Below, in pieces: positions 617-60,211 of a stretch of DNA of 64,000 bases. The stretch's first letter is position 1. Every line of letters starts with the position of its first letter. The notes under the pieces are model-generated. The model saw nothing but the letters and a program-made list of their open reading frames with translations. It did not search any database and was not told the DNA's origin. This DNA comes from a virus: the IMG/VR virus record IMGVR_UViG_3300013132_000023, positions 32,001-96,000 of that record; one strand, given 5' to 3'. Made by a program: the position numbers and the translations under genes.

Positions 617-1223
617 CGCGATTACAATCGCTGTCAATCAGGCTTGGGCCGACGCTCTCGCAGATCTTGAGAAGTGGATAGGGACAGACCTTATCGACGC
701 CATGATCTACGGGGGTCTCGGTATTCAGGGTATTTCACAAACTACATTCTATCGTTTTATTTCAAGCCCAGAAGGATTGAGTGAACTTGGTATTGAAAGT
801 TCTGAGCCGCCTCGTTTGTTAGACGCTTATAGAGATTCATTTAAAGTTTCTCGTAACAACAAAATCATCATGTTGAAATTTGGTGATGTTGCTAGACTTA
901 AGCTTGGTACTCCTCATCCTGCATCTGGTACTGGATTCTTGCAAATCGATTCTTGGATGGAGTGGATTTTGGATGGAGTTAATGTTGGTAGTGGATATGT
1001 TCCTCGTACAAAACTGCCTCGCAATGCACAGAAACGTATTCGTATCAATTCTGCTCCTGGTGGCTTAATGCTTCCTCGTGGTGTTTTTGGTAGCACTGGT
1101 TCTTGGCGTTTTCCGACAAGTCTGAATGACTATGACATGGATTGGTTTAAAACAAACATTGCTGCGATTGAGTCTGCAATAACTGATGCGATAACATTGT
1201 TTCTAACACGGAAATTAACCTAA
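576..1223 (+). CDS. hypothetical protein in the tail module
   Basis: 215-aa ORF with GTG start, overlapping the upstream gene; TAATG-coupled to the tape measure gene. No family recognised. Confidence 0.6.
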   Translation: MVSPWKLDLIRPSDAITIAVNQAWADALADLEKWIGTDLIDAMIYGGLGIQGISQTTFYRFISSPEGLSELGIESSEPPRLLDAYRDSFKVSRNNKIIMLKFGDVARLKLGTPHPASGTGFLQIDSWMEWILDGVNVGSGYVPRTKLPRNAQKRIRINSAPGGLMLPRGVFGSTGSWRFPTSLNDYDMDWFKTNIAAIESAITDAITLFLTRKLT

Positions 1224-4200: not shown

Positions 4201-6418
4201 TCTTCTTGATGTGGAAGATGTACTTGCTGGTACTTCGGGTCTTGGCGAAGGATTACAGCAAGTAATCATGAGTGCTTTTGCAGATCCTATCACTCAGGCT
4301 GAACAAGTTCTTGCGGCAGCTACGGCTTCTACTCAGGCAGAATTAGACATTCTTGCAAAGCGTCTTGAAATTGTCAATGGCAAGTTAGAAGACTCTGCTA
4401 ATTCGAATAACATTGCTGCTTTGACTACAGAGAAGCGTGCAATTGAATTGCAGATGGAAACTACTAAGCAATCTGGTGCAATTGCGGCCACAGAAGCTAA
4501 GATCAAAATACTGGAAGCTGAAAAAGAAGCTGCCGAAGAAGCCGCCGAACGTGAAAAAGAGCGTCTAGAGGCTTTGGAAAAACTAGCAGATGCGTCTAGA
4601 GCATTTGACAATGAGTTGCGTAAGATCAATCAGGGCTTTGAAGAATTCATGCAACAAAGAGTTGATGATCTTTTAAGCCAAGAAGCAGATGCACAGTCTG
4701 AACTTAAAGACGCACAACAACAAGTGTTGGCTTCTACTCAAGGTCTCGCTGAAGCGTATGATGGTTTGATTCAAGCTCAACTTAACTACAATGGTGTAAT
4801 TGCCGAAGCTCAAATCAAGAGCAATTTACTTGCTCGTGACATTGGTAAGCTTACTGGTGCGATTTTTAGTTTTGATGGCGAGCTTTCGGCCATTGGTGTT
4901 GCTTTTAGAAACGTGTTAAATGACTCAAACATTACTCTTGGTAAGCGTATTGAACTAGAGCGTCAGCTTGCTGATGAAACACTTGCTTTCTTGCAACAGG
5001 CTAAAGACGAAATTGTAAACGCCGGTATTGGTATTTTTGGACAGACTGGTCAAGAAAATCAGGCTCTTGGACAGGGCATTGCTGGTTTACAGTTTGTTGC
5101 AGAACAACTAGGCGGTTCGTTTGAAGCTTTCTTGAACATGAGTCAAGGAGACTTAGCAGGAGTAAGTCAGACATTGTTGTCATTACCGGCAGAGTTCCGT
5201 CAACAAATTCTCAATGCCCTTTCGTTCTTGCCAAGCACCATGAACGTTGGTGGCTTCTCTGTAGAACAGCTAACTGAAGCAATTGGACAGGTTGGTGCAG
5301 GAGTTGCACCCGAGTCTGGATTGCCATCTATTGAAGAACTAAACAATCAACAAGTTGAGCAATTAACAAAACTACAAGAGCTTGCCTTGCAAGACGCACA
5401 GCTACAATTTGCACAGGTTCTTTCGGCCCAAGAACAAGTTGCAGTTGCACAGGAGGCTGTTGCTGCTGCACAAATTGCACAAGAGCGTGCTTCGCAAAAC
5501 CTTACCGAGGTTCGTGATGCTGTTCTCCAGGAAATGGCGGTTTTGGAAACGGCTAACGCTGAACGTATAGAACTCTTGAATGCAGTTATTGCAACTGACG
5601 ATAAGAATACATTGATGATGATCGAAAAAGAAGCACAGGCTTTTGCAGATCAAAACTCTGTGTTCCGTGAAGTTGGAGACAATATTGTCAAAGGAATTGC
5701 AAGTGCAATTGGAGCCAAGTTGGCTGTACTTGAAGCTACTGCCAATGTTGCTAACATGGCTAGGGGATATATTCCAAACTTTGCTGGTGGTAATTTGTCA
5801 CCGGACGAAGCCGCTGGTTTGTTACGTGCTGCGTCTCGCGAAAAGCGTGCTATGCCAGCCGGTGCTGGACTTGCTGTAGCCAATACAAGTGAAGCTATCA
5901 TTCCTATGCGATATCGAGGATTTGTTCCTAATTTCCAGGATGGTAATGCGTCTCCAATTGCTGCTGGTATTTCTGCTATCAAGCAAATTAACGAAACTGT
6001 TGTTGCGGCTATCGCTCGTTCGGTTACGCAGTCACTTAGTAATTTGGATAGTGGTACTCAGTCTTCGGAATTGCTCACGGAAGTTGTTGCAGAATTGCGT
6101 GACATTAGAGATACCCTTGTTAACGTTGAAGAATCTAATGTACAGATTCAAGCCAACACCTTACAAACTGGTACAGGAACACAAACACAACAGTCTTCTG
6201 CAAATTCTGATGTACGTATTGTACTTGAAACGAACCAGAGAAATCAGATTGCTGTTAGCGGTCTTGAGGGTCTTCGTGAACAAATTTCGGTTGCCGTTAA
6301 GGAAGCTGCTGCGGAACAAGTTGATCAGCAACTTGCAACACTATTGTCGGAACTCGATAACATTCTTTCTGCACTCCAAGAGCGTGGCATTATCTCTAGC
6401 CTAGGTCAAGCACGATGA
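1223..6418 (+). CDS. phage tail tape measure protein
   Basis: 1731 aa, Ala/Leu/Glu/Gln-rich and helical. N-terminal TP901-like TMP core (FEFDSALRDIV...KTFVQAGLSIEDAQERARLA...REIGTFFKTLQTRI...LEALGVEV), central hydrophobic Gly/Ala segments, long coiled coil; followed by tail-like genes. Confidence 0.9.
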   Translation: MARVQLEAVLRLVDVQINPQVFRRISQSVAGMPGSLANVNVNLRQTVTHANNLNRRLQQTTQTLSNSERAARLLLQRMAQFAILLPTFATLNRAIQGSVSFLFEFDSALRDIVRTDVSSLRDRMEEIGDTALRTAMDLGVVAQEVLNVTKTFVQAGLSIEDAQERARLAIIATQVSTLDTEGAVQFLITATNQFGLNTDQLKSSLDALVKVEDLAAVEAQDISEAFRTGGNSMASFGKNINDAIGLISALKQQSGKSGREIGTFFKTLQTRIFAAGESRDALEALGVEVENLDGTLRPTLTVLNDMKAAFDGLTEAQAANASKAIAGVRQFEALDATLKSLKRANELSTEASEAAGAVDQKRTVTDQKLEIQLGKLIAQGQAFAEALGDAGLEDAINKVLKVATKLLGVFTSVVDMISQAGGSITPLLALAGVRIGGSVLGFASGGAPGGGGMQAPQPGQQGFIGPLTQSQAAMASLGTDLKRLGSIAVDGGKALGIMAYNVGVNTKATSMYGYTTSIASRTLTQHTAAVMANARALTASAAASFQNRVANLQGATSMVAITLAASMLPKVFEVLEEKAGGLGGQLGQGAAAFTGIAGESATLAAQFAVLGPQAAGIAAFFGALTGSVSRFFDALEERIKTFSEQAELSNRDGRVSAAEFRLQGGGRLGSEAQASFIEVLENSVKGVELGQPLAAAIQKSFDQAAKGKGFGDLKIAGDELRESLLGNVNVIKALVDTNQGYLKSVADSEGRLEQFTQLQDGLADGTLKSGEAFGLLVRALGAGEVEIDRVTGLIKKSLSFEEFKAAQDTLELADGIRLLGRELGLAKLGPEALSDELVRLESEFLVTQEASERTQESLRETLNAAILNLGDVNFAKNVKFQDLLADLLDTPETFDTDSIEAFKEVIRGLPKAEREAAEDILEIVKQQVEDKIDLQKAENDMIAEQSRRRKALFDAEAVATQNAFEASRKFTAELMKFGDAVNTEVLASFQNLTLLDVEDVLAGTSGLGEGLQQVIMSAFADPITQAEQVLAAATASTQAELDILAKRLEIVNGKLEDSANSNNIAALTTEKRAIELQMETTKQSGAIAATEAKIKILEAEKEAAEEAAEREKERLEALEKLADASRAFDNELRKINQGFEEFMQQRVDDLLSQEADAQSELKDAQQQVLASTQGLAEAYDGLIQAQLNYNGVIAEAQIKSNLLARDIGKLTGAIFSFDGELSAIGVAFRNVLNDSNITLGKRIELERQLADETLAFLQQAKDEIVNAGIGIFGQTGQENQALGQGIAGLQFVAEQLGGSFEAFLNMSQGDLAGVSQTLLSLPAEFRQQILNALSFLPSTMNVGGFSVEQLTEAIGQVGAGVAPESGLPSIEELNNQQVEQLTKLQELALQDAQLQFAQVLSAQEQVAVAQEAVAAAQIAQERASQNLTEVRDAVLQEMAVLETANAERIELLNAVIATDDKNTLMMIEKEAQAFADQNSVFREVGDNIVKGIASAIGAKLAVLEATANVANMARGYIPNFAGGNLSPDEAAGLLRAASREKRAMPAGAGLAVANTSEAIIPMRYRGFVPNFQDGNASPIAAGISAIKQINETVVAAIARSVTQSLSNLDSGTQSSELLTEVVAELRDIRDTLVNVEESNVQIQANTLQTGTGTQTQQSSANSDVRIVLETNQRNQIAVSGLEGLREQISVAVKEAAAEQVDQQLATLLSELDNILSALQERGIISSLGQAR

Positions 6419-7920
6419 ACGTCTTATCTCAAGTTCCCAATCCGCCGTTAGCAGCCGTTGAAGTTTACTATAATGGCTGCAAGCTAACGCCAGCTCCATT
6501 AATTGATTGGACGATTGAACCGCAGTTTGACGATGCTGGTGTTCGTACCGCTAATCTCAATCGTTTGACTCTTACTGGCACCGTACTTGTAACTCCGTCT
6601 GGTAGTTACGAGCAAATGTTCATTAAGCAAACTGAACTACGTAACGCGTTTTCGGTTGATGATGCTGATTTCGTTATCTTAGCTGGTCCTGGTAACAAGA
6701 CTTTATCGCCGGGTACGATTATTTCGTCTGGTCTAAGACCAAAAGTCACTAGCGTTAGCGTTCCGGCAGATACTCAATTCATACGTATTGACTATAGTGT
6801 TGAACTAGAAGACTTAGTAACCGCTTCTGGTGTTAGTGGTGTTACATCAAGCTTAAGCGACCAATGGTCGTTTAGAGAAAATCCAGATACTTGTACTGTT
6901 CAGGTTACGCACAACATTAGTGCCGAAGGACCGGACGGTGAGTCTGATAAGTTTGAGCAGGCTATGCGTGCAGTTCAAGCACGTATTGGTATTGACAAGC
7001 TGCCACTTGCTATTCCATTCTTTGTACAACCAAATGCTTCTGGTTTGTTTGGCATTACTCATCCGTCAAATCCTGCTGGCGGTCCTATTTTCGAAGTGTC
7101 TGTACAGCGTGAAGAAGTTGCTGACGTATCTAATGGTACGTATCAGGTAACAGAAATCTTTACGATTGTTAGTGGCGTACCATTCTACTATACGTCACGC
7201 ACAGAGTCTTTTGAAGAAGACGTAAATGGTGTTGCAACCGTAACGGTTGCCGGTACCGTTCAAGGACTTGGACGTACGTTGACGCCAAATTATCCGGATG
7301 GTGGTGTTGGCTTTGAAAGAGCCTGCTCTGGATTCATTAATCACGTTAAGCCTAAGTTACGCTGGGAAGCTTCTGGCGTTTACGTTAAGTTCAAGGAGGG
7401 TGGAAATGGAAGCGGTATTGCCGTCTACAATCCTACCTCGTATTCTGTATCACAAAATAAGTGCCGTGGCACTGTCGATTTTTCTATTACTTTTACAGAC
7501 GATCCCGCTGCTAATTTACCAAGTGGTATAGTAAGTAGCAGTTGTAGCGTTTCTATGGTTGAAGGAATTAGATTGTATGCTACTCATGCAATTCCGTTTA
7601 GACGCCTTGGAAACATCATACAAGACATTAAGACTACAACGGAAGGATCTATCTCTATTCAATGTCAAGCAACTTCGAAGAATACTGGCAATCCGACTGT
7701 AGATACAAATCGTGCTATTCAGTATGTTCAAGATGAACTTAATCGTCTTAAGAGCTTACACGCCAATCCGGCCAATTTTGTAACTCTTCGTATTTCGAAC
7801 TTGAATCAACAGTTTAGTGCAACCGATCTTACCAGTCAGGCTACACTTGATTTTGCATTCACTGTTGATCTATCAACGACACCTGATGTGAATTCTAACA
7901 TTGCATTGAGGACAATCTAA
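6415..7920 (+). CDS. putative tail/baseplate structural protein
   Basis: 501 aa, rich in V/T/S, ATGA-coupled directly after the tape measure gene. Confidence 0.65.
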   Translation: MNVLSQVPNPPLAAVEVYYNGCKLTPAPLIDWTIEPQFDDAGVRTANLNRLTLTGTVLVTPSGSYEQMFIKQTELRNAFSVDDADFVILAGPGNKTLSPGTIISSGLRPKVTSVSVPADTQFIRIDYSVELEDLVTASGVSGVTSSLSDQWSFRENPDTCTVQVTHNISAEGPDGESDKFEQAMRAVQARIGIDKLPLAIPFFVQPNASGLFGITHPSNPAGGPIFEVSVQREEVADVSNGTYQVTEIFTIVSGVPFYYTSRTESFEEDVNGVATVTVAGTVQGLGRTLTPNYPDGGVGFERACSGFINHVKPKLRWEASGVYVKFKEGGNGSGIAVYNPTSYSVSQNKCRGTVDFSITFTDDPAANLPSGIVSSSCSVSMVEGIRLYATHAIPFRRLGNIIQDIKTTTEGSISIQCQATSKNTGNPTVDTNRAIQYVQDELNRLKSLHANPANFVTLRISNLNQQFSATDLTSQATLDFAFTVDLSTTPDVNSNIALRTI

Positions 7921-8480
7921 TGGTTCAGTTTCCTGATGTTGAATGGATTCAGCAGAGTCTATCGATTAATCCTTCTGGATCAAGGCACTTAAAGCTAGGT
8001 GCTGCTGGATTCTTGCGTGTTTTGGACACGAGTGCTGGTGGTGTTCTGGATTTTGGTCAGTTGAACACTACTGGTTCTGGATCTATCACGTCCACTAAAC
8101 TGGCTTATGCTAGAGTTAATGACTTGGGTGATGCTAGTGGCGTTTTCAACATGCGATTCTTCCTTGTGAATACGTCTGCATGGGGTGCTGGTACCTTCCG
8201 ATTTTTAGAGCGAAAGACATTGCACTTTGTCCCAAGTCTTTCATTGAATTCGTCTGCTAACAATACGCCTACGGTAGTGCCGTCACAAGCGAATTTGTCT
8301 GGTACTATTACTACTCCAGAGTTTCCATTGGGTAAACCTTGGATGAGTGGAATAGCCGACATTGACGTAAGTCAATATGTTTATCTTGCTGTTGAAGCTA
8401 GTAGTGATGTACCTATTGGAACGTATGGCGGGGCTGGTGCTGGTTCATTCCGTTACAGGTTGATTTATGACTTCTCATGA
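7920..8480 (+). CDS. putative virion structural protein (paralog of 8651-9298)
   Basis: 186 aa; shares blocks with the 8651 protein (NMRFFLVNTSAW vs DLRLYLVTDSAF; SQYVYLAV...PIGTYG vs SEFIYMNI...PLGPFG). Confidence 0.65.
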   Translation: MVQFPDVEWIQQSLSINPSGSRHLKLGAAGFLRVLDTSAGGVLDFGQLNTTGSGSITSTKLAYARVNDLGDASGVFNMRFFLVNTSAWGAGTFRFLERKTLHFVPSLSLNSSANNTPTVVPSQANLSGTITTPEFPLGKPWMSGIADIDVSQYVYLAVEASSDVPIGTYGGAGAGSFRYRLIYDFS

Positions 8481-8664
8481 CAAAATCGAACTTCGTAAGG
8501 TAGACGAACCAGAGTTCAATAGTCTGCCACGCGGCGTACGTCTAATTACAGTAGGCGACAAGCTAGTCTTTGCACGCTGTATTGGCAGTCGCTTTATACC
8601 ACTTTCAGATAGCGAACAAGAAAGGCTTCGCGAGAAGCATATTCAATCAAATGGCGGCGGGTGA
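8467..8664 (+). CDS. small hypothetical protein
   Basis: 65-aa ORF overlapping both neighbours by 14 nt and filling the gap exactly. Confidence 0.55.
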   Translation: MTSHDKIELRKVDEPEFNSLPRGVRLITVGDKLVFARCIGSRFIPLSDSEQERLREKHIQSNGGG

Positions 8665-9298
8665 TTTTCCTGTAATTCGCGTGTTCGAATGGGATACGAC
8701 AGAGATAGCAAGTCCGGTTGGTAACCGTAACTTGCCGGGTGGTTCGTTTGCCTTCAAGAAAATCGTTGCATCCGGATGTGCCACTGCAAATCCTAATTTT
8801 CCTGGCACCACATCGGGAACGTTATTGTTTGAAAACGTAAGGTTTGATCTTACTAATCCGCCTCTTCCATCACACGTAGCTTCAAGAGTAACCGCTATTA
8901 CGTTTAATTTGGCAGCTAGCGGTACAGCAATTTCAGATCTTAGACTATATCTTGTTACTGATTCTGCTTTTCAAGCAGGACAAGATCAAGGACTAGATAG
9001 GGGTTTTATACAGTATGCTCCTAGTGGTAGTTTGTGGTTACCGAATCTCGTATTGGCGTCTGGGGCAGTTGCTCGCCTACCGTTAACTGTTCCTGTTGCT
9101 CCTAACGTACGTCGCCAAGATGGTGGAAATGCCCTCATTGGACAGGACGATGGTAATTCTTCTGAGTTCATTTACATGAATATCGTTGTTCCTCTAGGAA
9201 CTCCTTTGGGGCCTTTTGGCGTATGTGGTTCTGGTCTTTTAAGACTAGGACTAGTGTTTAACTACTGGTCTAATGCTTTTGTATTAGATCTAGGTTAG
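8651..9298 (+). CDS. putative virion structural protein (paralog of 7920-8480)
   Basis: Start re-assigned to ATG 8651 (MAAGDFPV..., aligning with MVQFPDV of the paralog) rather than the TTG at 8570. Confidence 0.65.
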   Translation: MAAGDFPVIRVFEWDTTEIASPVGNRNLPGGSFAFKKIVASGCATANPNFPGTTSGTLLFENVRFDLTNPPLPSHVASRVTAITFNLAASGTAISDLRLYLVTDSAFQAGQDQGLDRGFIQYAPSGSLWLPNLVLASGAVARLPLTVPVAPNVRRQDGGNALIGQDDGNSSEFIYMNIVVPLGTPLGPFGVCGSGLLRLGLVFNYWSNAFVLDLG

Positions 9299-9304
9299 TG
9301 TATT
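9296..9304 (+). promoter_or_regulatory. TAGTGTATT motif, candidate phage late promoter element
   Basis: One of five intergenic copies; its TAG is the stop codon of the upstream gene. Confidence 0.6.
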
Positions 9305-9362
9305 CTTTTTTTGAGACATCGTGTCTCTTCGGACGTTCGAACTTTTCTTAGGAGGTAATGCT

Positions 9363-9548
9363 ATGGCAACTTTCAATGCAACTAGCAGCACCAACAACGC
9401 AAACCAAGTTCTTTGGAGCTACAGCACACGCCTAGTCTGGCACACAGACCGTGATGTGTCTGGTACCAGCCGTGGTGGCGAAGTTGAAGCTGTACACAAT
9501 CTTGGTGTTGGTGTGGCTACGGGTGATCCTTTCACCAATCTACTGTGA
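9363..9548 (+). CDS. small hypothetical protein, possibly virion-associated (61 aa)
   Basis: AGGAGG Shine-Dalgarno at 9350-9355 supports ATG 9363 (MATFNATSS...). Confidence 0.65.
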   Translation: MATFNATSSTNNANQVLWSYSTRLVWHTDRDVSGTSRGGEVEAVHNLGVGVATGDPFTNLL

Positions 9549-9566
9549 TTTTGGGTAGATGAGCTA

Positions 9567-9613
9567 ACTAAGGTCGGGTGCTTAACATGAGCACCCGACC
9601 TTAGTGTATTTTT
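9567..9613 (+). terminator. intrinsic terminator-like hairpin overlapping a TAGTGTATT motif
   Basis: Perfect 16-bp inverted repeat ACTAAGGTCGGGTGCT (9567-9582) / AGCACCCGACCTTAGT (9590-9605), followed by GTATTTTT. Confidence 0.75.
9602..9610 (+). promoter_or_regulatory. TAGTGTATT motif, candidate phage late promoter element
   Basis: Second intergenic copy, upstream of the 9656-20608 gene run. Confidence 0.6.
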
Positions 9614-9655
9614 AGACATGAGGCGTAGCGTTCGCTTAGTCTCAGGAGCAAGGAC

Positions 9656-10132
9656 ATGGCAAAAGCTACTTTTGAACATGAAGGCAATTCTGGCCTTCTA
9701 ACGGTCATTACCCATTTTGACCACACGGCATTTATACCCTGCACCAAAAGGGTAGATGAGGCGTTTCGTCTCGGCGGCACTGCTGTAAACTCTGTTGTCG
9801 TCTATGAAGGCTTAACACTCAACCTTCCATGCTTACCGTCATTTGTTCACTTTCGAGCTTTCCGTACACCGGAAGATTACTTTGATTCCGTTGGTGTAAT
9901 TTCTCAAGAAGATTGGTCAGACTCGGATCGTCATTGTTACGTGACTGAATACTATAGCCTTGATATGGAAGGCAAGAAACCGAGCTGGTTTATCAGTCGT
10001 CAGCCAATTCAAAACGCCAATCATTTGTTCATAAATCTAGACGTTGTTGATGGTGGTGGCAATGTTGTGCGTCGTTATCGTGTATCTCCATTTACCGGAG
10101 AATATCGTGTCATGGAGGGCCTAAATGCCTAA
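9656..10132 (+). CDS. hypothetical protein
   Basis: 158-aa ORF with AGGAG upstream; no family recognised. Confidence 0.65.
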   Translation: MAKATFEHEGNSGLLTVITHFDHTAFIPCTKRVDEAFRLGGTAVNSVVVYEGLTLNLPCLPSFVHFRAFRTPEDYFDSVGVISQEDWSDSDRHCYVTEYYSLDMEGKKPSWFISRQPIQNANHLFINLDVVDGGGNVVRRYRVSPFTGEYRVMEGLNA

Positions 10133-13100
10133 TCTCATTACTGATGGTTCTCTTGTTGGTTTTTGGCCACTGAACGAGCCGAGTGGAGCACCAATTTGGC
10201 AAAACTATTCCCCTGCTTTTGGTTTTGCTCCTAGTGGTATTGGGCTAGACTTGACGGTTGCTGTTGCAGACGTAAGCAATCTTGAGGAATTTATGTCAGT
10301 GTGGCCTGGGCGTGCCACCGTGTTTAATCCTGAGTCTGGTGTATTTTACACCGGGTATCAAGTGCAAGGAGCTTGGAAAACTGGTACCGATTCGTCTCCA
10401 TTGAGTCGTTATTTAGTAATGGCTGGTGGATCAAGTCGAGGAGCACAACAAATTTGGCAACCAGCCATTGCTAATAGTGGATTCACTGTTGGTTTTTGGG
10501 TATATCCAAATAGCAATGGTAATTTGTCTTTCTACTCTAACATGTTGGCTTCTACTAATTCAGCTATTGAAGCTTGTAGAGCACACACTCTTGTTGGAGC
10601 ATTTCAGTCGAACACGTCTAACGCTGGTTGGCACATTGGTATTTCCGGTGCTATGGATCGTGCAGCACAGTTCAATTTTGATGCTACTGCTGGTAATCAA
10701 TTACGTGCTTTTGCATTCATTGAAAAGACTGGTACTGCTGCTCCAGCAGATTTGTTAAGTGTACCTATTGAATCTGGAAAGTTTACCCATCTTTCATACA
10801 GCTTCCGATTTATCGATGGCGTTTCGAATCAGATTGTTCTTTATAAAGATGGTCATGTTGCCGTTAGTGGGACAACTTCAGCCAGCCTGACGGCAGCTAA
10901 TACAAATCTTATTACTAATGCTTTAGCACGTTCACTTACTGTTGGTGCTTCGGATGATGGAACTACCGCTACAGACGACTATGAACGTACGAGCGGATGG
11001 AATCATCTTGTTTCTGGTTTGTATTTTTTCAAGCGTGTTCTCAATGAAGGAGAAGTGCTTGAAATGCATCAGCGTGGTGGACTACAACCAGCACTTGAAC
11101 AGACTATTGTACCTTCTCCTACACGCCTTACGTCTAGCTACTTGATTGCGTATTATCCATTCATGGAGCCTGGATATGGCGACGTAAGCTCAACGCACTT
11201 GGCAGCTAATTCAAATTACGACGCCGGTTCTTCTTCTGAGCGTGTTTTTGCCCCTGGTCCACATGGTTTTGGTGGTGTTTTCCACAATGGAACAAACACG
11301 TCTAACTATCATGCTGTACCAAGTGGCGTATGCTTTGAAATGCTAGACGGTGGAAGCTGGACGTTTGGTACATGGTGTAGTCTTAATAACGCCGCTAACC
11401 GTGATGATAACATCTTCTTTTCGTGGGGTTCAGTAACTACCGTTACAAATGCAGCACTTGATCCTGCGTCTGCTGCTTTTACAACTAATACTGGCGGCAT
11501 CGTTGGTACTGTAAGTGGTGTAACAAACCAACAAAGAATTGCTATTGAAGTTTATACTCTTGGAAGCAACCGTAATGCTGCCTCTACTCGCGTGTTTAAT
11601 CTTGATGGATCTTTTGAGTATTACAATCAATCATGCTTTCATATTGCCCTAGCTTATGATAATGAAACAAGAGGACTTTCTGTTTTCCTCAATGGTCATT
11701 TAGCACAAAGCGGAACGTTACCTAATTCACTTACCGATCAGTTGCGTCGAATCACTGGTAGTGGATATCCGTTAATGTTTGGAAACGGAGTTCAAGACGG
11801 TATTTTGGATTCTGTGACACGCGGTTTGCATACTGGTGGAGGTATTGACATTTGGCTTGGTCCTTGTTTCATGGCAAATGGTGCTCTGAACACACAAACA
11901 GTACGCGGCATTGCCTTAAGCGGCATTGTTGATCTGTCTTCTATTTATCGCACACGTCATGATCCTCGTCTTGTTGGATATTGGCCATGTAATACCTATC
12001 TACTTTCTGACGTTTTAGTTCTTGATGAAGCACGCGTATGGAGCCGAGTACCAAGTCACTTGGTGCGTGGCGACTCAAGTCCTACGGATGAGCGTTGGTA
12101 TGACGTGGATTTAAATGATGCTGCTGGTAGCGTGTATCGTAATGACGGTACTGCACGCATTGATCACTTTGGAACGCGTACAAATCCTCCGGAGCTTTCT
12201 AGCTATGGTAACCTTGGGATTACTTCTGGTATTTTTGTTGCTAACGCTGGATCTTTAGGAACAGAAGGAGCAACTAATGCTGGTGAGTCTGAGTCGTCTT
12301 ATGGCAATAATTCTATTCGTCACAAGCCGGTAATAGAAACGAGATCTTCGTCAGCACAGAACATTGCGGGCGAGTATATTGTTGCTTTTGAAGTAACTCC
12401 TAGTGGTCGTATTCCGGCAGTAGACACTGTTCGTACTGCGGCAACTACTGCAATTCATACAAATTGTTTACTGTTTGCTATTGGTAATCAAGCTTCATCT
12501 CCAGGAGCGGGTGACGCTTCGTATCATGGTTTCTTGACTTCACTTAATGCTAATAATCCAGATCCGTTGGGATTTGATGCTGGTCTAGGTGGGTCTGGTG
12601 TGATTATTAAGATCATGGGCAGTGAGGATACAATTACTGCCGCTAATCAGATTCCTTTGGTTTCCGGTAGATTGCCTTTTGGAGTACCAAGCAAAGTGCT
12701 TGTACATACCAAATTTGATAATCCATATTTATTCAATGGTATTACTGCTGGTCAATCTTCGTATACTATTAGTCTATGGATTAATGGTGTTTTGACACAT
12801 AGACGTACTTTACCGCACGTCAATTCGCGTGTGTGGTCCGATGGTGTAGTTGAAGATGCTGCTTCTACTGTACTCGTACAGTTTGGTGGCGTTTTGGCAA
12901 GCGACCTATACACTTCTACTGTAGGGTGGCAAGCTGGTTTAGGCGATATCTTTATGCGTGAAATCTTCCTTATGAAGGGAGTTTTCTTAAAAGACGAAGT
13001 TGCAGCGTTGGCGAATAGCGGCATTCAGTCTCCGTCTATTGCTGGTTTTACAAATCAAATGTCTACTACGCAGGTTACAATTGCTGACGCAGACATTCAG

Positions 13101-15158: not shown

Positions 15159-15161
15159 GGT

Positions 15162-18100
15162 ATGAATATTCTTGTTTCGAATGGAGTTGTCGTAAGTGGC
15201 GTAGGAGTGCCGCTTAATGGTATTGCGTGGCCTTCTGGTCAGTTTAATAGCAATGCCCCAGGGTCACAGCTTTGTGCCTTTTTGTCTTCTGTTAATGCTA
15301 CGTTTGGTTTCAATGTAACGCCTCATTCCTTTCAAACCGAGTGGATTCCTTGTGGCGATTCTTGTGCATTTCATGGTGCCTCTGGACAATTGCCCAATAT
15401 TGGTCATCCGTTAGAATTGTTTGTTGGCGACTTCTTTTTCCGTGGTCGCGTAACACACGCAGACTATACTACGACTACTGGTGGCACTGTAGTTGGTATA
15501 ACTGTAGAGGATGATCGTCGTCAATTACGTCGCGTTAAGATTCATACTGAAGACCTAGGAGAAGACGCACCAAGCGGTGTCGTTTCAATTGCCCGTGCTT
15601 ATCGTATAGTCAATGGTTTGAACGATCTCAACGGTGATCCAAACGATCCAAATATTAGAGAGTATCGTCGCATTTTGCAATTTGGTGGAACGTATAATCA
15701 GTTATTGACGGCTATTCAGCTTCATTTTAACCAAGGAAAATGTTCGATTGCTGTTACGGAACTTCCAACAGCGGAACAACTTGAAAGCAATATTGGTGGC
15801 ACAATTGACGCTCTGCGTTTTCAGTTTAATCTGACGACTCTTGATGAAGCCATTACTCGTATCCTTCAAGATACTGGTTACGATTGGTACTGGAACATGG
15901 ACGCTCAGCGTCTAAATCTAATTAACAAGAAGGTAGCTTTTGATCTATCTGAAAATGATATTCTGGATCTTGTGTCGCAATTTGGTAGTGCGAGTGGATT
16001 AAACGAAACAAAGCAACTGGGTTTTGGTCAGGACGTTGTTCCGGATCCAACACGTTTTCGTGTACTTGGTGGACACCAAGAAGGTTTCATTAACTCACAT
16101 TTATTGAGTCCAATTGATGGTCTTGATACATTTGGTTTAGACGGTCACGTAAACAAAGACGTTAAGAGTTCTGGAATCAACATTGTTTTCACACCAGCTT
16201 GGTCTCGTTTGACAATAGGCTTTTATGACGCAGACGGTTTTTATCGTACGTACATACCTACTGAAAAAGAGCTACAACTTGCTCTTGCTGGCATTGAACA
16301 GTGGACGTATTTCAAGATTTATCAAACAGATCTGACGACGGCTAATCCACCAGGATTTGCTTTGCCGGTAGACGCAGGATCGATTGCAGCACAACATCCA
16401 ACTTTCCAGAGTCGTTTGGATCCAGTTATGCCGTTGGCAGCATTTGGAACCGGCAATGAAGCATCTGGTATTCGTATTATTAGCAATAGACGTGACCAGG
16501 AGCAAAACTGGGTTTTGTCTTTTTATTCACGCATTAGCGATCACGCGTCACGTCACTATGGACGTTCGTATGTAGCCGAAGGACTGTTGTTCAATGAAGC
16601 GTCTGGTTTGTTCCGTCTTGTTGATGCGGCTTGGGCAAACGTAGAGAATCAAGTTCAGGGATACGGTCTTTCAACTTCAGGCGTTGTGATATCGGTTGGT
16701 AGTGGTGTTTACTTAGAAGATTACGAAATCAATCGTGCTCTTGGTCCTATTAGTCCGTTCGTCACTGACGATTTCCGTGTACGTGCGTACTGCCGTCTTC
16801 CGGCTAGTACGGTTTATGGTCCGCAGGGCGATAGTAATCCTGCTGGCTTTGGTAACTGGACAGAAGACGCACCTCCTTTTAATCCTACTGGTTCGGGCGA
16901 TCACTATATCCCCGTTCAGTTAACACTGGTTGGTAATCGCGTAGAAGACCCTCGTAGTGACGAGCTTTATTCTTTTGAAGATTACCCCGAGGGTACGATA
17001 TGGTGTCAATTGCCAATTAACGCTGGACCATCGGGCGGTCTTCGCGTTGATCCAATCATTAGGCAGTTGTCTACATTAGTCACTACGAATACAAAGCTTG
17101 CTGGTTCTGGCTTGACGGATATCATTAATCCAGCAATTGTCTTGAACGTTTATGATTCTTTGTCTGGTGTAGCTATTCCAGTAGAAGCACGTAGTCGTTA
17201 TGGTCAAACGTATCCAGGCCAATGGGTTTTGGGAGATCTGCATTATGAACGTGATGAAGACGTTCAGCTTGATGATCAATTTGTACCTTGGGCTTATTCT
17301 CCCGAAGGTAATCAAACGTCTTTACAGATTATGACGGATCGTGCTATTCGTCGTGTACAAGGTAAGATTGTACCGCGTAGTTCTTCACGATATGCTGACT
17401 TCCAACAAGTTGGATTACCATTGTTGTCTTTTGATGCATTTGCAGAACAAGGCATTGGTCCTTCTGGTCGCTATGGTGAAATCAGTCATGGTGTTAGCGA
17501 ATTGAATATTTCGTTTGGCATCGAAGGATTTGGAACTCGCTATAAGATACAGTCCTACTTCCCGAAGTTTGGTCGTGAAGCACCGCTTGGTGAGCGTGTG
17601 CGTGCTCAACTTAATGGCGTAATCAATCCTATCGATTTTACTGACTTGTCATTGTTGAATCCTCTGCCGGGTAATCCTCCTGATCCGTTGTTACCGGGCG
17701 ATTCATTCTTGCCGCCTATTTTCTTCGATAGAGAAAAACGAGCCGTTCGTGTAACCATTACGGACGTTACTAATGTTTTCACGCTTGGTAGCAATCCTGC
17801 GACCCAAGAAGAAGAACGTTATCGTGGTCTTGATCAGAATTCGTATTACAAGCCGCCTTTTGGTTTTTCTTCTAGCAATCCGGATTTCGCGAAAGGTGCT
17901 ATTTGTATTGATGGTTTCCTGAATGTTGGAGATGAAGCACTGTATCATACGGACGAATTTGAATTGCCCGGTGGTAATCGCGTGCTGAGATACTTCACTC
18001 AGGGGCGTCCTTTTGGAAATGGTACGATTGTACAAATTCAAAATGTCAACGCTAACGATCTTTCGGCATATGACGTTACTATCGTAGACCCTACAACTCT

Positions 18101-18530
18101 CTCAACGTTAGGTGTTGAGCGTGCTATTCTTGGCGTACAAGTTCTTAATGGTTCTGTTTCAATTGGAGATCGTACTACGCTTGCAGCACAAGGAGATGCA
18201 CCTATTGCTCCAGGAGCAAGCAATGGTACTATCTATGTAGCTGGTACTGTTCAAGATTCTGCTGGTGTTACACCAGTTGAGATTGTTGAAGTAAGCCTTG
18301 CAACTACTGTTAATGCTCGTGCAACTTGCAGAATACTTAACAATAATGGTGTTGTTGTTACGTCTGGTACGTTGTATTCAGATGTAGTACCGATTCCATA
18401 TCCACAGTTTGCTACATCTGGTGATCGTGGTTTCTTAACCAGGGCAACCGTTCCAAGCGGAACGCTTGGTGCTACAGCTCAAGTAAATTTCATTCAGATA
18501 GTAAAGCCAGCATTTATTAGGTACGCGTAA
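15162..18530 (+). CDS. large putative tail/baseplate protein
   Basis: 1122 aa; the N-terminal part resembles hub-type tail proteins (LELFVGDFFFRGRV...ITVEDDR; AITRILQDTGYDWYW). Located in the tail module. Confidence 0.6.
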   Translation: MNILVSNGVVVSGVGVPLNGIAWPSGQFNSNAPGSQLCAFLSSVNATFGFNVTPHSFQTEWIPCGDSCAFHGASGQLPNIGHPLELFVGDFFFRGRVTHADYTTTTGGTVVGITVEDDRRQLRRVKIHTEDLGEDAPSGVVSIARAYRIVNGLNDLNGDPNDPNIREYRRILQFGGTYNQLLTAIQLHFNQGKCSIAVTELPTAEQLESNIGGTIDALRFQFNLTTLDEAITRILQDTGYDWYWNMDAQRLNLINKKVAFDLSENDILDLVSQFGSASGLNETKQLGFGQDVVPDPTRFRVLGGHQEGFINSHLLSPIDGLDTFGLDGHVNKDVKSSGINIVFTPAWSRLTIGFYDADGFYRTYIPTEKELQLALAGIEQWTYFKIYQTDLTTANPPGFALPVDAGSIAAQHPTFQSRLDPVMPLAAFGTGNEASGIRIISNRRDQEQNWVLSFYSRISDHASRHYGRSYVAEGLLFNEASGLFRLVDAAWANVENQVQGYGLSTSGVVISVGSGVYLEDYEINRALGPISPFVTDDFRVRAYCRLPASTVYGPQGDSNPAGFGNWTEDAPPFNPTGSGDHYIPVQLTLVGNRVEDPRSDELYSFEDYPEGTIWCQLPINAGPSGGLRVDPIIRQLSTLVTTNTKLAGSGLTDIINPAIVLNVYDSLSGVAIPVEARSRYGQTYPGQWVLGDLHYERDEDVQLDDQFVPWAYSPEGNQTSLQIMTDRAIRRVQGKIVPRSSSRYADFQQVGLPLLSFDAFAEQGIGPSGRYGEISHGVSELNISFGIEGFGTRYKIQSYFPKFGREAPLGERVRAQLNGVINPIDFTDLSLLNPLPGNPPDPLLPGDSFLPPIFFDREKRAVRVTITDVTNVFTLGSNPATQEEERYRGLDQNSYYKPPFGFSSSNPDFAKGAICIDGFLNVGDEALYHTDEFELPGGNRVLRYFTQGRPFGNGTIVQIQNVNANDLSAYDVTIVDPTTLSTLGVERAILGVQVLNGSVSIGDRTTLAAQGDAPIAPGASNGTIYVAGTVQDSAGVTPVEIVEVSLATTVNARATCRILNNNGVVVTSGTLYSDVVPIPYPQFATSGDRGFLTRATVPSGTLGATAQVNFIQIVKPAFIRYA

Positions 18531-20608
18531 TGGTTATGCAATCAGGTGTAGTGCCGTATGAGTACGCTCATGGCGGCAGAAGATTTGAATCAAAGCCTAT
18601 CCCGTTGGGCTTGTCTGGCATTTTGCTAGAACAGGCACAGTTTGTAATTACTGCTGAAATTAGAAAATGGATTGGTGATTACTCTGACTTGCAGCCATTC
18701 AATGTATACATCAATACGGACGCTTTGCCATCTGGACAATATGAACCAAAGGCTAATGGTACAACCTTAGACAATGCTCTTAATCCGGGGGCAGTTGTTT
18801 TTGTTGATCACATTTTAGAGTGTCGTGCAGCGTTGAATGTACTCTTAAATTTGTACGAAGCTGACACTGACTTAGACACATATCAATATCGTGCAGGGTG
18901 GCTACAAGCTTTGTTTCCTGAAAGTACGAGTGGATTCATAAATGGCTCTGACGATCAAGCATTTTTCACTGGAATTGGGCATTGGCGACATAGAAGACCA
19001 TCAGAAATTGGAATTATCGATTATGTTTCTGATGAAGTTTTAGGAGCATCTGGCGTCTTATACGATATCGATTTTTCAGAAGTGATGTTCAATCCGGCAC
19101 CACATATTGCTGGTTTGGGCTTTGATGAGGCACATGGACTCAGGGTAAACAATACGAATGATACCTTTGCTATTCAACAATACCCGGTCTTTCCAGCTTT
19201 TCAAAAGACCGATGGCTCTATTATTGATTTGAACGGTAGAGAGCCAGCTAATTTGTCTACATACAGAACGTCACACGTATCGTCTGGAGCGTTGCGTTTA
19301 CATGGATACATGCTGAGACCACAGACGAAACTCATGTTATCTAGGGAGCGTACGTTTGGCAGCGATGTAGACTTTACGATTTTTTCCGAAGGTATTCGTG
19401 CTCCATACAATCCTAATGTACCAACAACGCTTGTCTTTATCACTCCAACTTCACAAGGTAGTGGAGTGTATAGAATTGGTGCAGCTAATAGATTCGTAGA
19501 CTTTCCAAATGCAACTATTGAGTCGGGTATTTTTAGTCACTGGCCACCAATAGAAGTGTATTGGCCTTCGGATCATCCAACAAGCTCTACTACCACTACT
19601 GCCAATGGTGGTTATCATGTCTTTAATGACTGCATATGGATGACAGACGTATCCTTGAGTTCGTCTTTTGGCGGTCCTAACTTTGGATATCCTTCTGGTC
19701 TTGCTGTTTTGTCTCCGTATACAGGACACAGAATGTGGCTTCGTTATGCGGATATGACACCAATAGACATTGATGTTTTTGGAGGCATCAATAAGCGTAA
19801 TTGGGGAACTGGAAAAGGACTAGAGCGTGTTTCGTCAAACAACATCTATCGTGTCGCTCCAATAGTTGCAAAATCAACACCTACCCCTACTTCCGGACAG
19901 TTTGTTTTCGGTTGCTACAATGACAATCTAGATCTTGTAACGACTATCACAACAATTTCATCTTCTCCTAATGGTGACAACCTTTTTCCTCTCGGAGGTG
20001 CAGTCATTTCTCTTAGTGATTTTTGGTTTAACGGATCAAACTACTTTGTTGCCAATGCAGAATTCGTTGGTTTTGATTTGTGGAAATTAGACTCTTCGTT
20101 CAGTTACGTCACTAAGTATGTTTTCAATCGTCCTAGTGGAATACATAATGCAAGAGGAGCTTATGTTAATGGTCAAGATGTTCTATTCTATTTTGTACTA
20201 AACAATGCTCCTGGTGATGCAAATTTTGCTACAAGCGGTATATTTCCAATCAACTTTATTGATGAAGGCAGTGATCCGTTTGATAATTCGGCTAATCTTG
20301 GTCCGGTTGGTGAAGCTGAAATTTCGCCAGCGACCGCAAAATACATCAATGGTGCGGCACAACTTGGTGTAGCTCAGACCGCTGAAATCATGGATCTTTT
20401 TGAAGTAACGTCGTCAACTCACGTTGTTCCTGGTGTTTATGCTATCGTTCGTTTTAAGCTAAATACGAATCCCTTTAATGGTGGCGATTTGTATCTTTTA
20501 CGCTTGCAGGAAACCTCTACGGCTTGGGAAATTGTAGCATTGACGAGACTTGAAACTGCCGTCAATTCTTTTATGCCAAGACGTGAATTACTGTATATGG
20601 GCTATTAG
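18530..20608 (+). CDS. putative virion structural / receptor-binding protein
   Basis: 692 aa, TAATG-coupled, aromatic- and beta-rich C-terminal half. Confidence 0.55.
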   Translation: MVMQSGVVPYEYAHGGRRFESKPIPLGLSGILLEQAQFVITAEIRKWIGDYSDLQPFNVYINTDALPSGQYEPKANGTTLDNALNPGAVVFVDHILECRAALNVLLNLYEADTDLDTYQYRAGWLQALFPESTSGFINGSDDQAFFTGIGHWRHRRPSEIGIIDYVSDEVLGASGVLYDIDFSEVMFNPAPHIAGLGFDEAHGLRVNNTNDTFAIQQYPVFPAFQKTDGSIIDLNGREPANLSTYRTSHVSSGALRLHGYMLRPQTKLMLSRERTFGSDVDFTIFSEGIRAPYNPNVPTTLVFITPTSQGSGVYRIGAANRFVDFPNATIESGIFSHWPPIEVYWPSDHPTSSTTTTANGGYHVFNDCIWMTDVSLSSSFGGPNFGYPSGLAVLSPYTGHRMWLRYADMTPIDIDVFGGINKRNWGTGKGLERVSSNNIYRVAPIVAKSTPTPTSGQFVFGCYNDNLDLVTTITTISSSPNGDNLFPLGGAVISLSDFWFNGSNYFVANAEFVGFDLWKLDSSFSYVTKYVFNRPSGIHNARGAYVNGQDVLFYFVLNNAPGDANFATSGIFPINFIDEGSDPFDNSANLGPVGEAEISPATAKYINGAAQLGVAQTAEIMDLFEVTSSTHVVPGVYAIVRFKLNTNPFNGGDLYLLRLQETSTAWEIVALTRLETAVNSFMPRRELLYMGY

Positions 20609-20614
20609 TGTATT
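20606..20614 (+). promoter_or_regulatory. TAGTGTATT motif, candidate phage late promoter element
   Basis: Third copy; shares the 15-mer TTAGTGTATTCTTTT with the copy at 9295; its TAG is the upstream stop codon. Confidence 0.6.
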
Positions 20615-20702
20615 CTTTTGCAAGCATTGATGTGTTTGTCATAGCATGGTCCGAAGTAACGTTCCTGTTTTAGGATAGTTGCTTTGACTTAGGAGATAAA
20701 AG

Positions 20703-21368
20703 ATGGTATCAGGAATTCGTTTTTTTGCTTGTTCTGGAGCAATGGGTGGTACGCCATCAACTCGTGCGACTCCCAACGTAGAGATTTTTGCTTTTGAAAT
20801 TGGAGCTACAAATAGCCCTAATCGTATGGGCTTTTTTGGTTCCGCTGGTGCTCCGAACTCTGCCGTAATCGTGGGTCAATACCAAGATCGTACGCATTGT
20901 ACTGATCATGTTGGTACAGATCGTGGTGTTATGATTAATGTCAAGTATCTTGGTGCATCTGATGCGTCTGTTTCTGGCGTTCCGTTGACCTCTACTGGTC
21001 ACACCCTGGCTAGTATTCCACAGAACTCCGGTACACTATTGGCACGTTTTACAGATCCTACCAGTACGGCTGTCGTTACGCAAACAGCTACATTCCGTGC
21101 GGTTAATTTCACTGCTGGTTCTGGTGTTCCTGATATTGGCGATTTGGCTTCAAACATTGTCATTCAGGCTGCACAATTACAGGATACTGCTGGTAATGCC
21201 GGTGACGCTAGCTGGTCGCAGATTTCAAGCGGTGGTGCTGCCTTAGCGTTGGCCGATCAATCAATTTCTGCAACAGTTCATGATTTCCACTTGATCGTTA
21301 GTGGTTCTCCATCTCAGGCTGGTCGTAAGATTGACTTTGGTTATTATCTACAGCTTGAATTCTTGTAA
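20703..21368 (+). CDS. putative virion structural protein
   Basis: 221 aa, A/S/G/T-rich, AGGAG Shine-Dalgarno, preceded by its own TAGTGTATT motif and followed by a terminator. Confidence 0.65.
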   Translation: MVSGIRFFACSGAMGGTPSTRATPNVEIFAFEIGATNSPNRMGFFGSAGAPNSAVIVGQYQDRTHCTDHVGTDRGVMINVKYLGASDASVSGVPLTSTGHTLASIPQNSGTLLARFTDPTSTAVVTQTATFRAVNFTAGSGVPDIGDLASNIVIQAAQLQDTAGNAGDASWSQISSGGAALALADQSISATVHDFHLIVSGSPSQAGRKIDFGYYLQLEFL

Positions 21369-40085: not shown

Positions 40086-40330
40086 AACTGAATACTATTG
40101 TATTAAATAACTGGGAAAAGAATATTGACCTTGCTTTAAAAACGGGTAAGGGGCGTTTTGGTGGTTGTACTTTTGTATGTGATATTTTTGCTTATAAGAA
40201 GATTATTGACATGATTAGAAAAGGTCAATATAAGAAAGCTTATAATTTTGCATATGATCTAGATACACATGCCAGAGAACAGATTCCTATGACTATTTGG
40301 TCTTTTTTGGACACCCATGAAGATAATTAG
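40082..40330 (+). CDS. small hypothetical protein in an AT-rich patch
   Basis: 82-aa ORF overlapping both neighbours. Confidence 0.55.
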   Translation: MKLNTIVLNNWEKNIDLALKTGKGRFGGCTFVCDIFAYKKIIDMIRKGQYKKAYNFAYDLDTHAREQIPMTIWSFLDTHEDN

Positions 40331-43591: not shown

Positions 43592-43592
43592 C

Positions 43593-44549: not shown

Positions 44550-44713
44550 GCGATTGTTTTTGGGAAGGCTTTGACGCTTTTAAGAGTGGTCATGACATTA
44601 ATCAAAATCCGTATCCAGAAGATGCTCCTGAACACGAAGAATGGCGGGATGGTTGGTTAGCTGGAGACATGGATCAAAATCTAAACGAAGAGGACGATAC
44701 AAGGCCGTGGTAA
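44546..44713 (+). CDS. ribosome modulation factor (Rmf/CrpP)-like small protein, absent from the ORF track
   Basis: Hand translation: MSDCFWEGFDAFKSGHDINQNPYPEDAPEHEEWRDGWLAGDMDQNLNEEDDTRPW* (55 aa). The G(F/Y)xA..xG...(N/C)PY...WxxGW signature matches RMF; ATGA-coupled to the upstream gene. Confidence 0.7.
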   Translation: MSDCFWEGFDAFKSGHDINQNPYPEDAPEHEEWRDGWLAGDMDQNLNEEDDTRPW

Positions 44714-60210: not shown

Positions 60211-60211
60211 T

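Follow-up and report, generated by a model that had tools for sequence, protein, structure and literature searches.

A selected Ser-Gly tag on tail-associated proteins of an uncultured phage clade, and a candidate role for it in phage-encoded O-glycosylation

We analysed bases 32001–96000 of the single 137,177-bp virus record IMGVR_UViG_3300013132_000023, which belongs to an uncultured phage. This 64,000-nucleotide stretch is referred to as the window, and positions are given in its numbering unless marked as genome positions. The tail, baseplate and fibre proteins encoded in the window are rich in the dipeptide Ser-Gly (SG). We find that SG is a real, selected and tail-centred tag in the clade to which this phage belongs, and that its sites are fixed, specific for serine and under a virion-specific constraint. 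An earlier reading of the DNA, hereafter the original prediction, had proposed SG as a sequon for O-glycosylation by the phage's own sugar cluster at 32928–48779. We put the probability that the serines of SG are O-glycosylated, in a reaction started by the cluster's first gene product, the glycosyltransferase GT-601, at about one half.

The Ser-Gly excess and its carriers

Expected numbers were calculated from each protein's own composition and compared with 2000 within-protein shuffles. The nine open reading frames (ORFs) of the tail block at 6415–21368 (4874 aa) contain 100 SG pairs, as compared to 44.0 expected. None of the shuffles reached this number (mean 43.7, standard deviation 6.0), and among the 400 dipeptides none is more over-represented in the block than SG. 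The reversed pair GS is neutral (46 vs 44.0). Given that TG is depleted (22 vs 37.7) and the turn pairs NG (34 vs 29.5) and DG (23 vs 27.7) are normal, the excess does not reflect general richness in turns. Gly directly follows 23.4% of the serines in the tail block and 7.2% of those elsewhere in the window, and seven of the nine ORFs exceed z = 2.5 individually. A second block of five ORFs from 59110 onwards, block B, behaves similarly, with 46 SG against 26.2 expected (0 of 2000 shuffles) and 17 GS against 26.2, whereas the remaining 45 ORFs of the window are at expectation (53 vs 51.8). When all 177 ORFs of the genome were surveyed, large proteins with strong SG enrichment were found only in these two blocks. 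The enrichment thus survives the composition correction that the original prediction had called for, and it partitions with virion proteins while sparing the tape measure protein (TMP), as had been anticipated. The carriers and the internal controls are as follows, with counts given as SG/GS/expected SG and "kept" denoting the share of SG pairs preserved in relatives.

6415–7920, + strand: SG-rich tail protein directly after TMP, 501 aa; 10/3/3.6; SG kept in 86% of 29 site-comparisons
7920–8480, + strand: small tail/baseplate protein, a weak SG case, 186 aa; 5/4/2.4; SG kept 67%, other Ser 20%
8570–9298, + strand: SG-rich tail/baseplate protein, 242 aa; 6/3/1.8; SG kept 78%
10125–15158, + strand: large SG-rich baseplate/fibre protein, 1677 aa, with Pfam Laminin_G_3 and PKD; 40/19/19.1; SG kept 89%, other Ser 27%
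15162–18530, + strand: SG-rich tail protein, the best conserved, 1122 aa; 18/8/7.9; invariant SG columns in the alignment; its family was used for the comparative tests
18530–20608, + strand: SG-rich tail fibre-like protein, fast-evolving, 692 aa; 12/6/5.0; orthologues at 25–50% identity; SG kept 50%
20703–21368, + strand: SG-rich small tail protein, 221 aa; 7/3/2.7; SG kept 65%; the motif TAGTGTATT lies upstream at 20606
59110–64000, + strand: block B, the second SG-rich block, with genes at 59110, 60255 (7/1/4.2), 61015 (9/3/5.0), 62200 and 62983, the last running beyond the window end
1223–6418, + strand: TMP, 1731 aa, internal negative control; 9/8/9.1
55647–57188, + strand: right-handed beta-helix protein (Pfam Beta_helix), beta-rich and Gly-rich, internal negative control; 4/4/4.3

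DnaE, a further control, gave 2/7/3.9. The earlier hand counts were right to within one (the 15162 protein has 18 SG, earlier counted as 17), its weak case, the 7920 protein, is indeed weak, and its three controls show no excess.

The excess is carried by serine codons of two unrelated families. TCT (67 vs 25.6), AGT (44 vs 15.1), AGC (16 vs 8.1) and also TCC are over-represented at SG sites, alike at 2.0–2.9-fold. Since both the TCY and the AGY families contribute, the bias lies at the protein level, in agreement with the earlier proposal. Before GGN, TCA and TCG are avoided throughout the genome whether or not a gene belongs to the tail, an effect of ordinary codon-pair context; their shares of the Ser codons are 3% and 6% at SG sites, as compared to 14% and 13% overall. 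The sequence context is also roughly as first described ([A/S/T/G/V/P]-S-G-[V/I/L/F/T]): the preceding residue is G, A, P, V or T at 98 of 146 sites, and the residue after Gly is V, I, L or T at 88 of 146.

Composition, codon-pair bias, internal repeats and paralogy are highly improbable as sources of a spurious excess. The genome-wide avoidance of TCA and TCG before GGN, together with a 14-residue repeat in the 10125 protein that supplies about nine SG sites, would favour such an explanation. However, removal of the repeat region leaves 91 SG against 39.7 expected in the tail block, and the per-protein correction with its shuffles, the two codon families and the seven individually enriched ORFs all speak against it. 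Composition, codon bias and repeats were therefore rejected as causes. The repeat itself, at about residues 1300–1440 and adjoining the Laminin_G_3 and PKD domains, consists of about nine units, each with SG followed by [LIV]-[IV]-G-G; we take its 14-residue period to resemble the beta-roll/beta-helix head repeats of trimeric adhesins.

To set a baseline, 59 annotated tail-tip, baseplate and fibre proteins, excluding tube and sheath proteins and one frameshifted gene, were collected from T4, lambda, SPP1, T5, P2, Che8, TP901-1, Mu and S-PM2. In these nine unrelated phages, SG is found 251 times against 208.5 expected (1.20-fold), while GS (0.99) and TG (0.98) are neutral. The observed/expected ratio per phage ranges from 0.78 to 1.60, and one of the 59 proteins exceeds z = 2.5, as compared to seven of the nine ORFs in the focal block. 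A general preference of tail proteins for SG thus explains about 1.2-fold, not the 2.3-fold of the focal phage. A generic tail-protein habit, which the original prediction had named among its refuters, is ruled out by this baseline; the Gly-rich beta-helix protein at 55647, with 4 against 4.3, agrees with this. Mild versions of the pattern were seen in lambda J (L031 15505–18903; SG 12 vs 6.5, TG 1 vs 8.1) and in the S-PM2 virion protein p089 (L038 8517–9437; SG 9 vs 3.3).

Across the virion proteins, the tag is unevenly distributed. SG is kept at 65–89% per protein in the tail block, the 18530 protein (50%) excepted, and at 92%, 100% and 50% in three of the five genes of block B. Several proteins encoded between the capsid gene and TMP (genome positions 23054, 24662, 25869, 26985 and 28099) keep 75–100% of their SG pairs; judging from their position, they are probably neck, tube or sheath proteins. 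On the other hand, the major capsid protein, the portal and TMP keep 11% each. The tag is therefore tail-centred: it is present on the baseplate, the fibres, the capsid-to-TMP proteins and block B, and absent from the capsid, portal, TMP and enzymes. The idea of a general coat across all exposed virion proteins was too broad, given that the capsid and portal are untagged. Pfam and PHROGs gave almost no names for the tail, head or block B proteins. Block B has no Pfam family, and a weak lead (Phage_fiber_rpt, score 0.85) suggests that it is fibre-like.

The 6415 protein has weak fold matches to Dit/tube-like proteins (E ≥ 1.4e-3) and may be a baseplate hub of this kind. Its AlphaFold2 model is of moderate quality (pLDDT 65.1, pTM 0.32), with 43% of the model in coil. 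Of its ten SG sites, six are predicted in coil, two at strand ends and two in helix.

Constraint on the Ser-Gly sites

Every relative used for comparison is an IMG/VR record. Homologues of the 15162 protein, at 43–76% identity, occur at 27 IMG/VR loci, several of them on contigs of 100–183 kb, whereas GenBank phages yielded no relatives by megablast of the tail block or tblastn of two tail proteins. All of the relatives examined, down to about 43% identity, show the SG excess.

We aligned the orthologues of eight tail proteins and compared close orthologues with those below 55% identity. In the close set, SG is kept in 90.6% of cases, as compared to 51.2% for the average dipeptide. Below 55% identity, it is kept in 74.8%, as compared to 22.1% for the average dipeptide, 30% for GS, 17% for TG, 23% for NG and 38% for DG. 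In the close and divergent comparisons, respectively, the serine of SG is retained in 92% and 85% of cases and replaced by Thr in 0.6% and 3.0%, while serines not followed by Gly are kept in 54% and 30%. The conservation is confined to the pair itself. The identity is 0.86 at Ser and 0.94 at Gly, while all of the surrounding positions from −6 to +7 lie at the background of 0.47–0.59, and [N/D]-G pairs (0.54/0.71) show no special conservation. SG thus forms a two-residue island of conservation.

The constraint follows the virion. In whole-genome comparisons with three relatives (G005, G002 and G003, with tail-block identities of 59%, 52% and 39%), the serine of SG in the tail block is kept at 85.9%, 84.3% and 62.8%, as compared to 41.7%, 36.2% and 27.4% for other serines. 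In non-structural proteins the two classes do not separate in this way (45.2/47.6%, 35.6/33.8% and 32.0/26.7%), and in TMP they are equal (33.3% vs 34.0%). Ten T4 baseplate proteins, compared with relatives at 58%, 48% and 37% identity, served as an external control. Here, the serine of SG and the other serines are kept at 40.0/42.1%, 46.7/37.3% and 26.3/24.5%, and the SG pair at 23%, 33% and 16%. As compared to the 56–85% by which the pair is kept in the tail proteins of the relatives, T4-like baseplates therefore range from 16 to 33%. Since no matching constraint exists in T4-like baseplates at matched divergence, the constraint is specific to the focal phage group and is not a property of baseplates generally.

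The 15162 family indicates how the sites relate to the protein fold. Its profile, searched against 1.84 billion representatives, retrieved 71 proteins. The closest six members have SG observed/expected ratios of 2.1–2.9, while a sister group of full-length homologues lies mostly at 0.5–1.75; two further homologues are SG-rich (P0013, 1.97; P0045, 2.70). In the alignment, SG extends throughout the family only at sites 12 and 25, and partly at 435. Sites 74, 138, 481, 649 and 668 are invariantly SG in the rich clade, and the sister clade has NN, DN, LD, DT, TD or gaps there. Judging from this alignment, the fold of the family does not need most of its SG sites.

The SG-poor homologues were considered as markers of SG-free phages, and were rejected. 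At the sister-clade loci in IMG/VR, the 15162 homologue is SG-poor (for example, 4 vs 5.8), but its upstream tail neighbours are SG-rich (23 vs 7.1 and 20 vs 7.4). The combination of a poor homologue with rich neighbours implies that the tag has been laid over different members of the tail module in each sub-lineage.

The sugar cluster and GT-601

The candidate enzymes lie in a 16-kb cluster downstream of the replication genes, which Pfam resolves as follows.

32272–32931, + strand: sigma-70 region 2 protein (Pfam Sigma70_r2, E 6.6e-11), directly upstream of and overlapping GT-601
32928–34733, + strand: GT-601, a GT4 (GT-B) glycosyltransferase by Pfam, with a four-cysteine (Cys4) insertion and a C-terminal DUF4214
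34730–36981, + strand: GT4 (416 aa) and GT2-like (334 aa) genes by Pfam, with homologues in 6 and 7 of 14 loci searched
36978–48779, + strand: variable remainder of the cluster, with GT2, GT4 and Glyco_trans_1_2 genes, the IMPDH/GMP-reductase gene, two methyltransferases, the Fcl-like epimerase at 46762 and Gmd at 47760

In total, Pfam assigns four GT4, three GT2 and two Glyco_trans_1_2 proteins, two methyltransferases, an IMPDH/GMP-reductase family protein, an Fcl-like epimerase and Gmd (E 1.1e-102) to the cluster; the fucose-synthase candidate is the Epimerase/GDP_Man_Dehyd protein. The description of this region as glycosylation genes was thus correct, with about nine glycosyltransferases, two methyltransferases and Gmd/Fcl. 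None of the proteins has a hydrophobic 19-mer clearly above 1.6, the one marginal value (1.63) being at the N-terminus of the 43452 ORF, and Pfam scans of the cluster together with hydrophobicity revealed no membrane, flippase or polymerase-type protein. On these predictions, the cluster is soluble and lacks membrane segments. A full-length IMPDH/GMP-reductase family gene (41000–42040, E 8.9e-96) stands mid-cluster and is kept there in some relatives; it is an odd companion for sugar enzymes and might feed the GDP-sugar supply.

GT-601 matches Pfam PF00534 (Glycos_transf_1) at 33.6 bits, above the cut-off of 26.4, and thereby belongs to GT4, with a GT-B fold. The cysteines C301, C304, C329 and C332 are invariant in all eight aligned homologues, and the stretch that contains them matches zinc-finger chains in a PDB profile search. 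The AlphaFold2 model of GT-601 (pLDDT 78.9, pTM 0.76) is nearest, among solved folds, to B736L of chlorovirus NY2A (Z 29.9, root-mean-square deviation 3.0 over 376 residues, 16% identity; rank 3 in Foldseek). B736L lies about 3 Z units above other GT4 enzymes, and GT4 enzymes fill the top structural matches (Z 21–30), while the protein O-transferases bacterial OGT, SPY, GtfA and SdgB appear lower (Z 17–19). When ten transferases of the cluster were compared with NCBIfam, no model of the bacterial autotransporter heptosyltransferases (BAHT) matched at E ≤ 0.001, and all matches were to GT4 and GT2 families far below their cut-offs.

GT-601 is the constant member of a variable cluster. A full-length homologue was found by BLAST in all ten records searched, fused into proteins of 955–1567 aa in three of them, and a profile detected it in ten of ten further SG-rich records, including one fragment in which the gene is cut by the contig end. 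The homologue is thus present in 20 of 20 SG-rich relatives and in none of 12 reference phages. Gmd is present in all ten large close relatives. Unlike GT-601, its first gene, most of the cluster differs from relative to relative; the genes at 34730–36981 come second in breadth of conservation. Among the sister lineages, GT4 enzymes were found in nine of ten and GT2 enzymes in eight of ten records, the misses being fragments that are 49% complete. The original prediction held that SG enrichment should co-occur with glycosyltransferases. Transferases are indeed present in all 20 relatives, but these include no transferase-free relative and hence offer no contrast.

The fused forms of GT-601 (L095 5644–9291, − strand; L096 7757–12460, − strand; L061 9612–12479, + strand; also in G012 and G018) carry GT2 domains as well, giving two or three transferases in one chain. 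In G001 (115721–117496) and G006 (99814–101592), the GT-601 profile match reads through one TGA.

A profile search with GT-601 recovered 79 IMG/VR loci, down to 29% identity. Nine of the 11 large records with distant homologues, including all three complete ones, have no detectable 15162-family protein. Six of these records were examined whole for ORFs of at least 500 aa in which SG is among the top two dipeptides with z > 2. This signature was found in 7 of 69 evaluable ORFs of the distant lineages (in five of the six genomes), as compared to 0 of 54 in reference phages (Fisher p = 0.015); the focal genome has it in 5 of 13, and three relatives in 3 of 10, 3 of 14 and 4 of 10. The test is suggestive only and partly independent, since these lineages are probably distant kin of the focal clade. 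In G025 (84689–88545) and G024 (93025–96881), the sole large ORF with SG at the top (514 aa, 7 vs 2.5) adjoins the GT-601-like gene.

The motif TAGTGTATT, a putative late-promoter element, occurs five times in the window against 0.97 expected, on the + strand at 9296, 9602, 20606, 52761 and 57934. Four of these lie just upstream of structural-gene starts, that at 57934 preceding the operon that leads into block B, and one is inside a DAO-family gene (52076–53305). As a test of a link between the sugar cluster and the virion genes, the motif is uninformative.

Readings of the tag

A two-residue, Ser-specific and fold-independent element that recurs on many unrelated tail proteins and is restricted to the virion suggests recognition by something outside the protein. 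Given that the only clade-wide modifying enzymes found are soluble glycosyltransferases, O-glycosylation is the best candidate reaction. Modification of the serine, its identity as a sugar and the initiating role of GT-601 are inferred. In such a mechanism, selection would keep SG at fixed positions on tail-associated virion proteins as a minimal two-residue tag, and the tag would most likely be read in the host cytoplasm by a soluble, phage-encoded enzyme acting on the serine. On tail, baseplate and fibre proteins that are beta-rich and already folded, GT-601 would start O-glycosylation at the SG serines. Extension of the glycan into a coat on the tail would then fall to the variable set encoded at 34730–48779, with its transferases, methyltransferases and GDP-fucose enzymes, and the placement of SG would set which proteins are coated, differing between sub-lineages. 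Tentatively, and with somewhat less assurance than for the enzyme and its site, this may be a large clade of uncultured aquatic phages that runs its own sequon-directed cytoplasmic protein O-glycosylation, in which a GT-601-type Cys4 GT4 enzyme reads SG and variable enzymes build a lineage-specific tail coat. The proposal that the cluster at 32928–48779 decorates the SG sites is partly supported: the cluster is real and the sites are constrained, and the link between the two is circumstantial.

Several observations weigh against O-glycosylation by GT-601. The major capsid protein is the most exposed protein of a virion and a target in mycobacteriophages, and here, with 3 SG against 1.5 expected, it gives no indication of being tagged. 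Two hydrophobic residues usually come after SG, and two of the ten sites in the 6415 model fall in predicted helix, so that some sites may not be exposed. GT-601 belongs to no curated protein-glycosyltransferase family in the NCBIfam scan, and the cluster could serve another purpose; within the window, no TAGTGTATT motif precedes either the sigma gene or the sugar cluster. The co-occurrence of GT-601 and SG is co-inheritance within one broad phage group, in which no relative without transferases was found. G023, a complete genome with a GT-601-like gene, has the signature in 0 of 12 evaluable large ORFs, and G025 and G024 have one modest case each. Moreover, about 70 of the 177 ORFs of the genome were scanned for families, and most minus-strand ORFs fall outside that set.

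Some of these points would suit a different explanation, in which SG is a lineage-specific structural or assembly motif without covalent modification, such as a strand-start or bulge element for a clade-specific chaperone, cement protein or subunit interface. The sites lie mostly in loops, at strand edges and just before hydrophobic strand residues; they are positionally fixed, without turnover; the capsid is untagged, G023 lacks the signature despite its GT-601-like gene, and lambda J and the pooled baseline show the pattern in a mild form. However, the turn pairs NG and DG are neither enriched nor specially conserved, and the serine of SG is almost never replaced by Thr, Asn or Asp, which is unusual for a turn position. 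The flanks of SG are conserved at background level, the sister clade, with the same fold, has gaps or different residues at these sites, T4-like baseplates are free of this constraint, and at least 14 proteins that share no recognisable domains carry the tag. We consider a purely structural motif unlikely, though it is the strongest rival of O-glycosylation.

SG could also be a tag for another modification or reader (phosphorylation, acylation, ADP-ribosylation, a host glycosyltransferase, processing or cross-linking), with the sugar cluster modifying the host surface or producing a glycan that is free or linked to DNA. The evidence for the tag itself, from conservation, the two-residue island and the sister clade, does not name the chemistry, and the missing late-promoter motif, the lack of a match to a curated protein-glycosylating family and the coverage of the family scan (about 70 of the 177 ORFs) are consistent with such a reader. 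On the other hand, no kinase, ADP-ribosyltransferase or acyltransferase was found among the roughly 70 proteins scanned, the clade-wide modifying enzymes found are transferases only, with GT-601 tracking all 20 SG-rich relatives, and the cluster has no membrane, flippase or polymerase-type proteins, which leaves a cell-surface polysaccharide route unsupported. Another modification or reader is improbable.

If the serines are O-glycosylated by GT-601, the nearest functional parallel may be the BAHT enzymes (TibC with its substrate TibA, and Aah with AIDA-I). The TibC study (PMC4358343) describes a soluble enzyme of GT-B type whose beta-helical substrate is modified at many serines but at no threonine. 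To recognise this substrate, TibC needs a Cys4 metal finger that is inserted in the catalytic domain, and Ser-313, one of two mapped sites, is followed by Gly. GT-601 is likewise predicted to be a soluble GT-B enzyme with an invariant Cys4 insertion. However, it is GT4-like, not a heptosyltransferase, it matched no BAHT model and its closest structural matches are GT4 enzymes; the focal cluster, which makes GDP-fucose, showed no genes for ADP-heptose; and its presumed substrates are at least 14 phage proteins instead of one adjacent autotransporter. TibC was not among the matches listed for GT-601 in Foldseek and a wide structural search, which leaves room for a similarity. By analogy, GT-601 may work like a BAHT enzyme, but membership in that family is not supported.

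The original prediction had drawn an analogy with the Ser-Gly sequon of animal glycosaminoglycans. The xylosyltransferase of animal proteoglycans recognises a Ser-Gly core in the acceptor, with a strict need for Ser and the following Gly. The analogy fails on the flanks, which in the focal phage are G, A, P, V or T before the pair and V, I, L or T after it; the acidic residues D and E do not rank high at either −1 or +2. Furthermore, Pfam scans of the focal cluster gave only GT1, GT2 and Glyco_trans_1_2-type families, and the enzymes would act in the cytoplasm, not in the Golgi.

Chloroviruses such as PBCV-1 and NY2A encode soluble transferases together with GDP-mannose 4,6-dehydratase and fucose synthase, and glycosylate their major capsid protein on Asn. 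The focal phage resembles them in having soluble transferases with Gmd and an Fcl-like epimerase, and in the fold of GT-601, which is nearest to B736L. It differs in that its capsid is untagged and the candidate acceptor is Ser; moreover, the identity to B736L is 16%, and the function of B736L is itself listed as putative.

To our knowledge, glycosylated phage virions are limited to a few mycobacteriophages, for which no sequon has been defined. Freeman et al. are said to have reported in 2023 that phage-encoded glycosyltransferases decorate virion proteins of the mycobacteriophages Che8, Corndog and Myrna. Phage-encoded glycosyltransferases are likewise present in the focal genome. In a further study (PMC12619734), however, the mycobacteriophage glycans are placed at the C-termini of capsid and tail-tube subunits, whereas the candidate sites of the focal phage are spread along tail, baseplate and fibre proteins and its capsid keeps SG at 11%. 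The tail proteins of Che8 have an SG observed/expected ratio of 1.26, and no homologue of GT-601 is present in Che8. The published full text that was searched yielded no account of Ser-Gly sites on the virions of phages. What is new here are the matched conservation baselines, the island profile, the sister-clade substitutions, the per-protein map that spares the capsid and the presence of a Cys4 GT4 enzyme in 20 of 20 SG-rich relatives.

If GT-601 and its cluster do glycosylate the SG serines, phages would, for the first time, be seen to encode a general protein glycosylation system that is directed by a sequon; it would be widespread in aquatic viromes and could be recognised from sequence. 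It would affect the prediction of tail fibres and receptor-binding proteins in uncultured phages, ideas about evasion of host proteases or other surface defences, and the engineering of cytoplasmic glycosylation. Even without a sugar, the retention of a two-residue element at about 100 positions of unrelated tail proteins, whose folds do not need it, is an unexplained constraint.

As for the setting of these genes, all of the large genes of the window are on the + strand. TMP and the tail block are followed by the replication genes (RecA, DnaB, primase, PD-(D/E)XK nuclease, ClpP and DnaE), the sigma-70-like gene, the sugar cluster, nucleotide-metabolism genes and block B, while the terminase, the portal and a weakly recognisable major capsid protein are encoded upstream of the window. 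Among the replication genes, the called ORFs of the PD-(D/E)XK nuclease (26470–27444) and of the ClpP-family protein (from 27209) share about 235 bases. The ClpP match of the latter begins at residue 98, implying that its true start is probably farther downstream.

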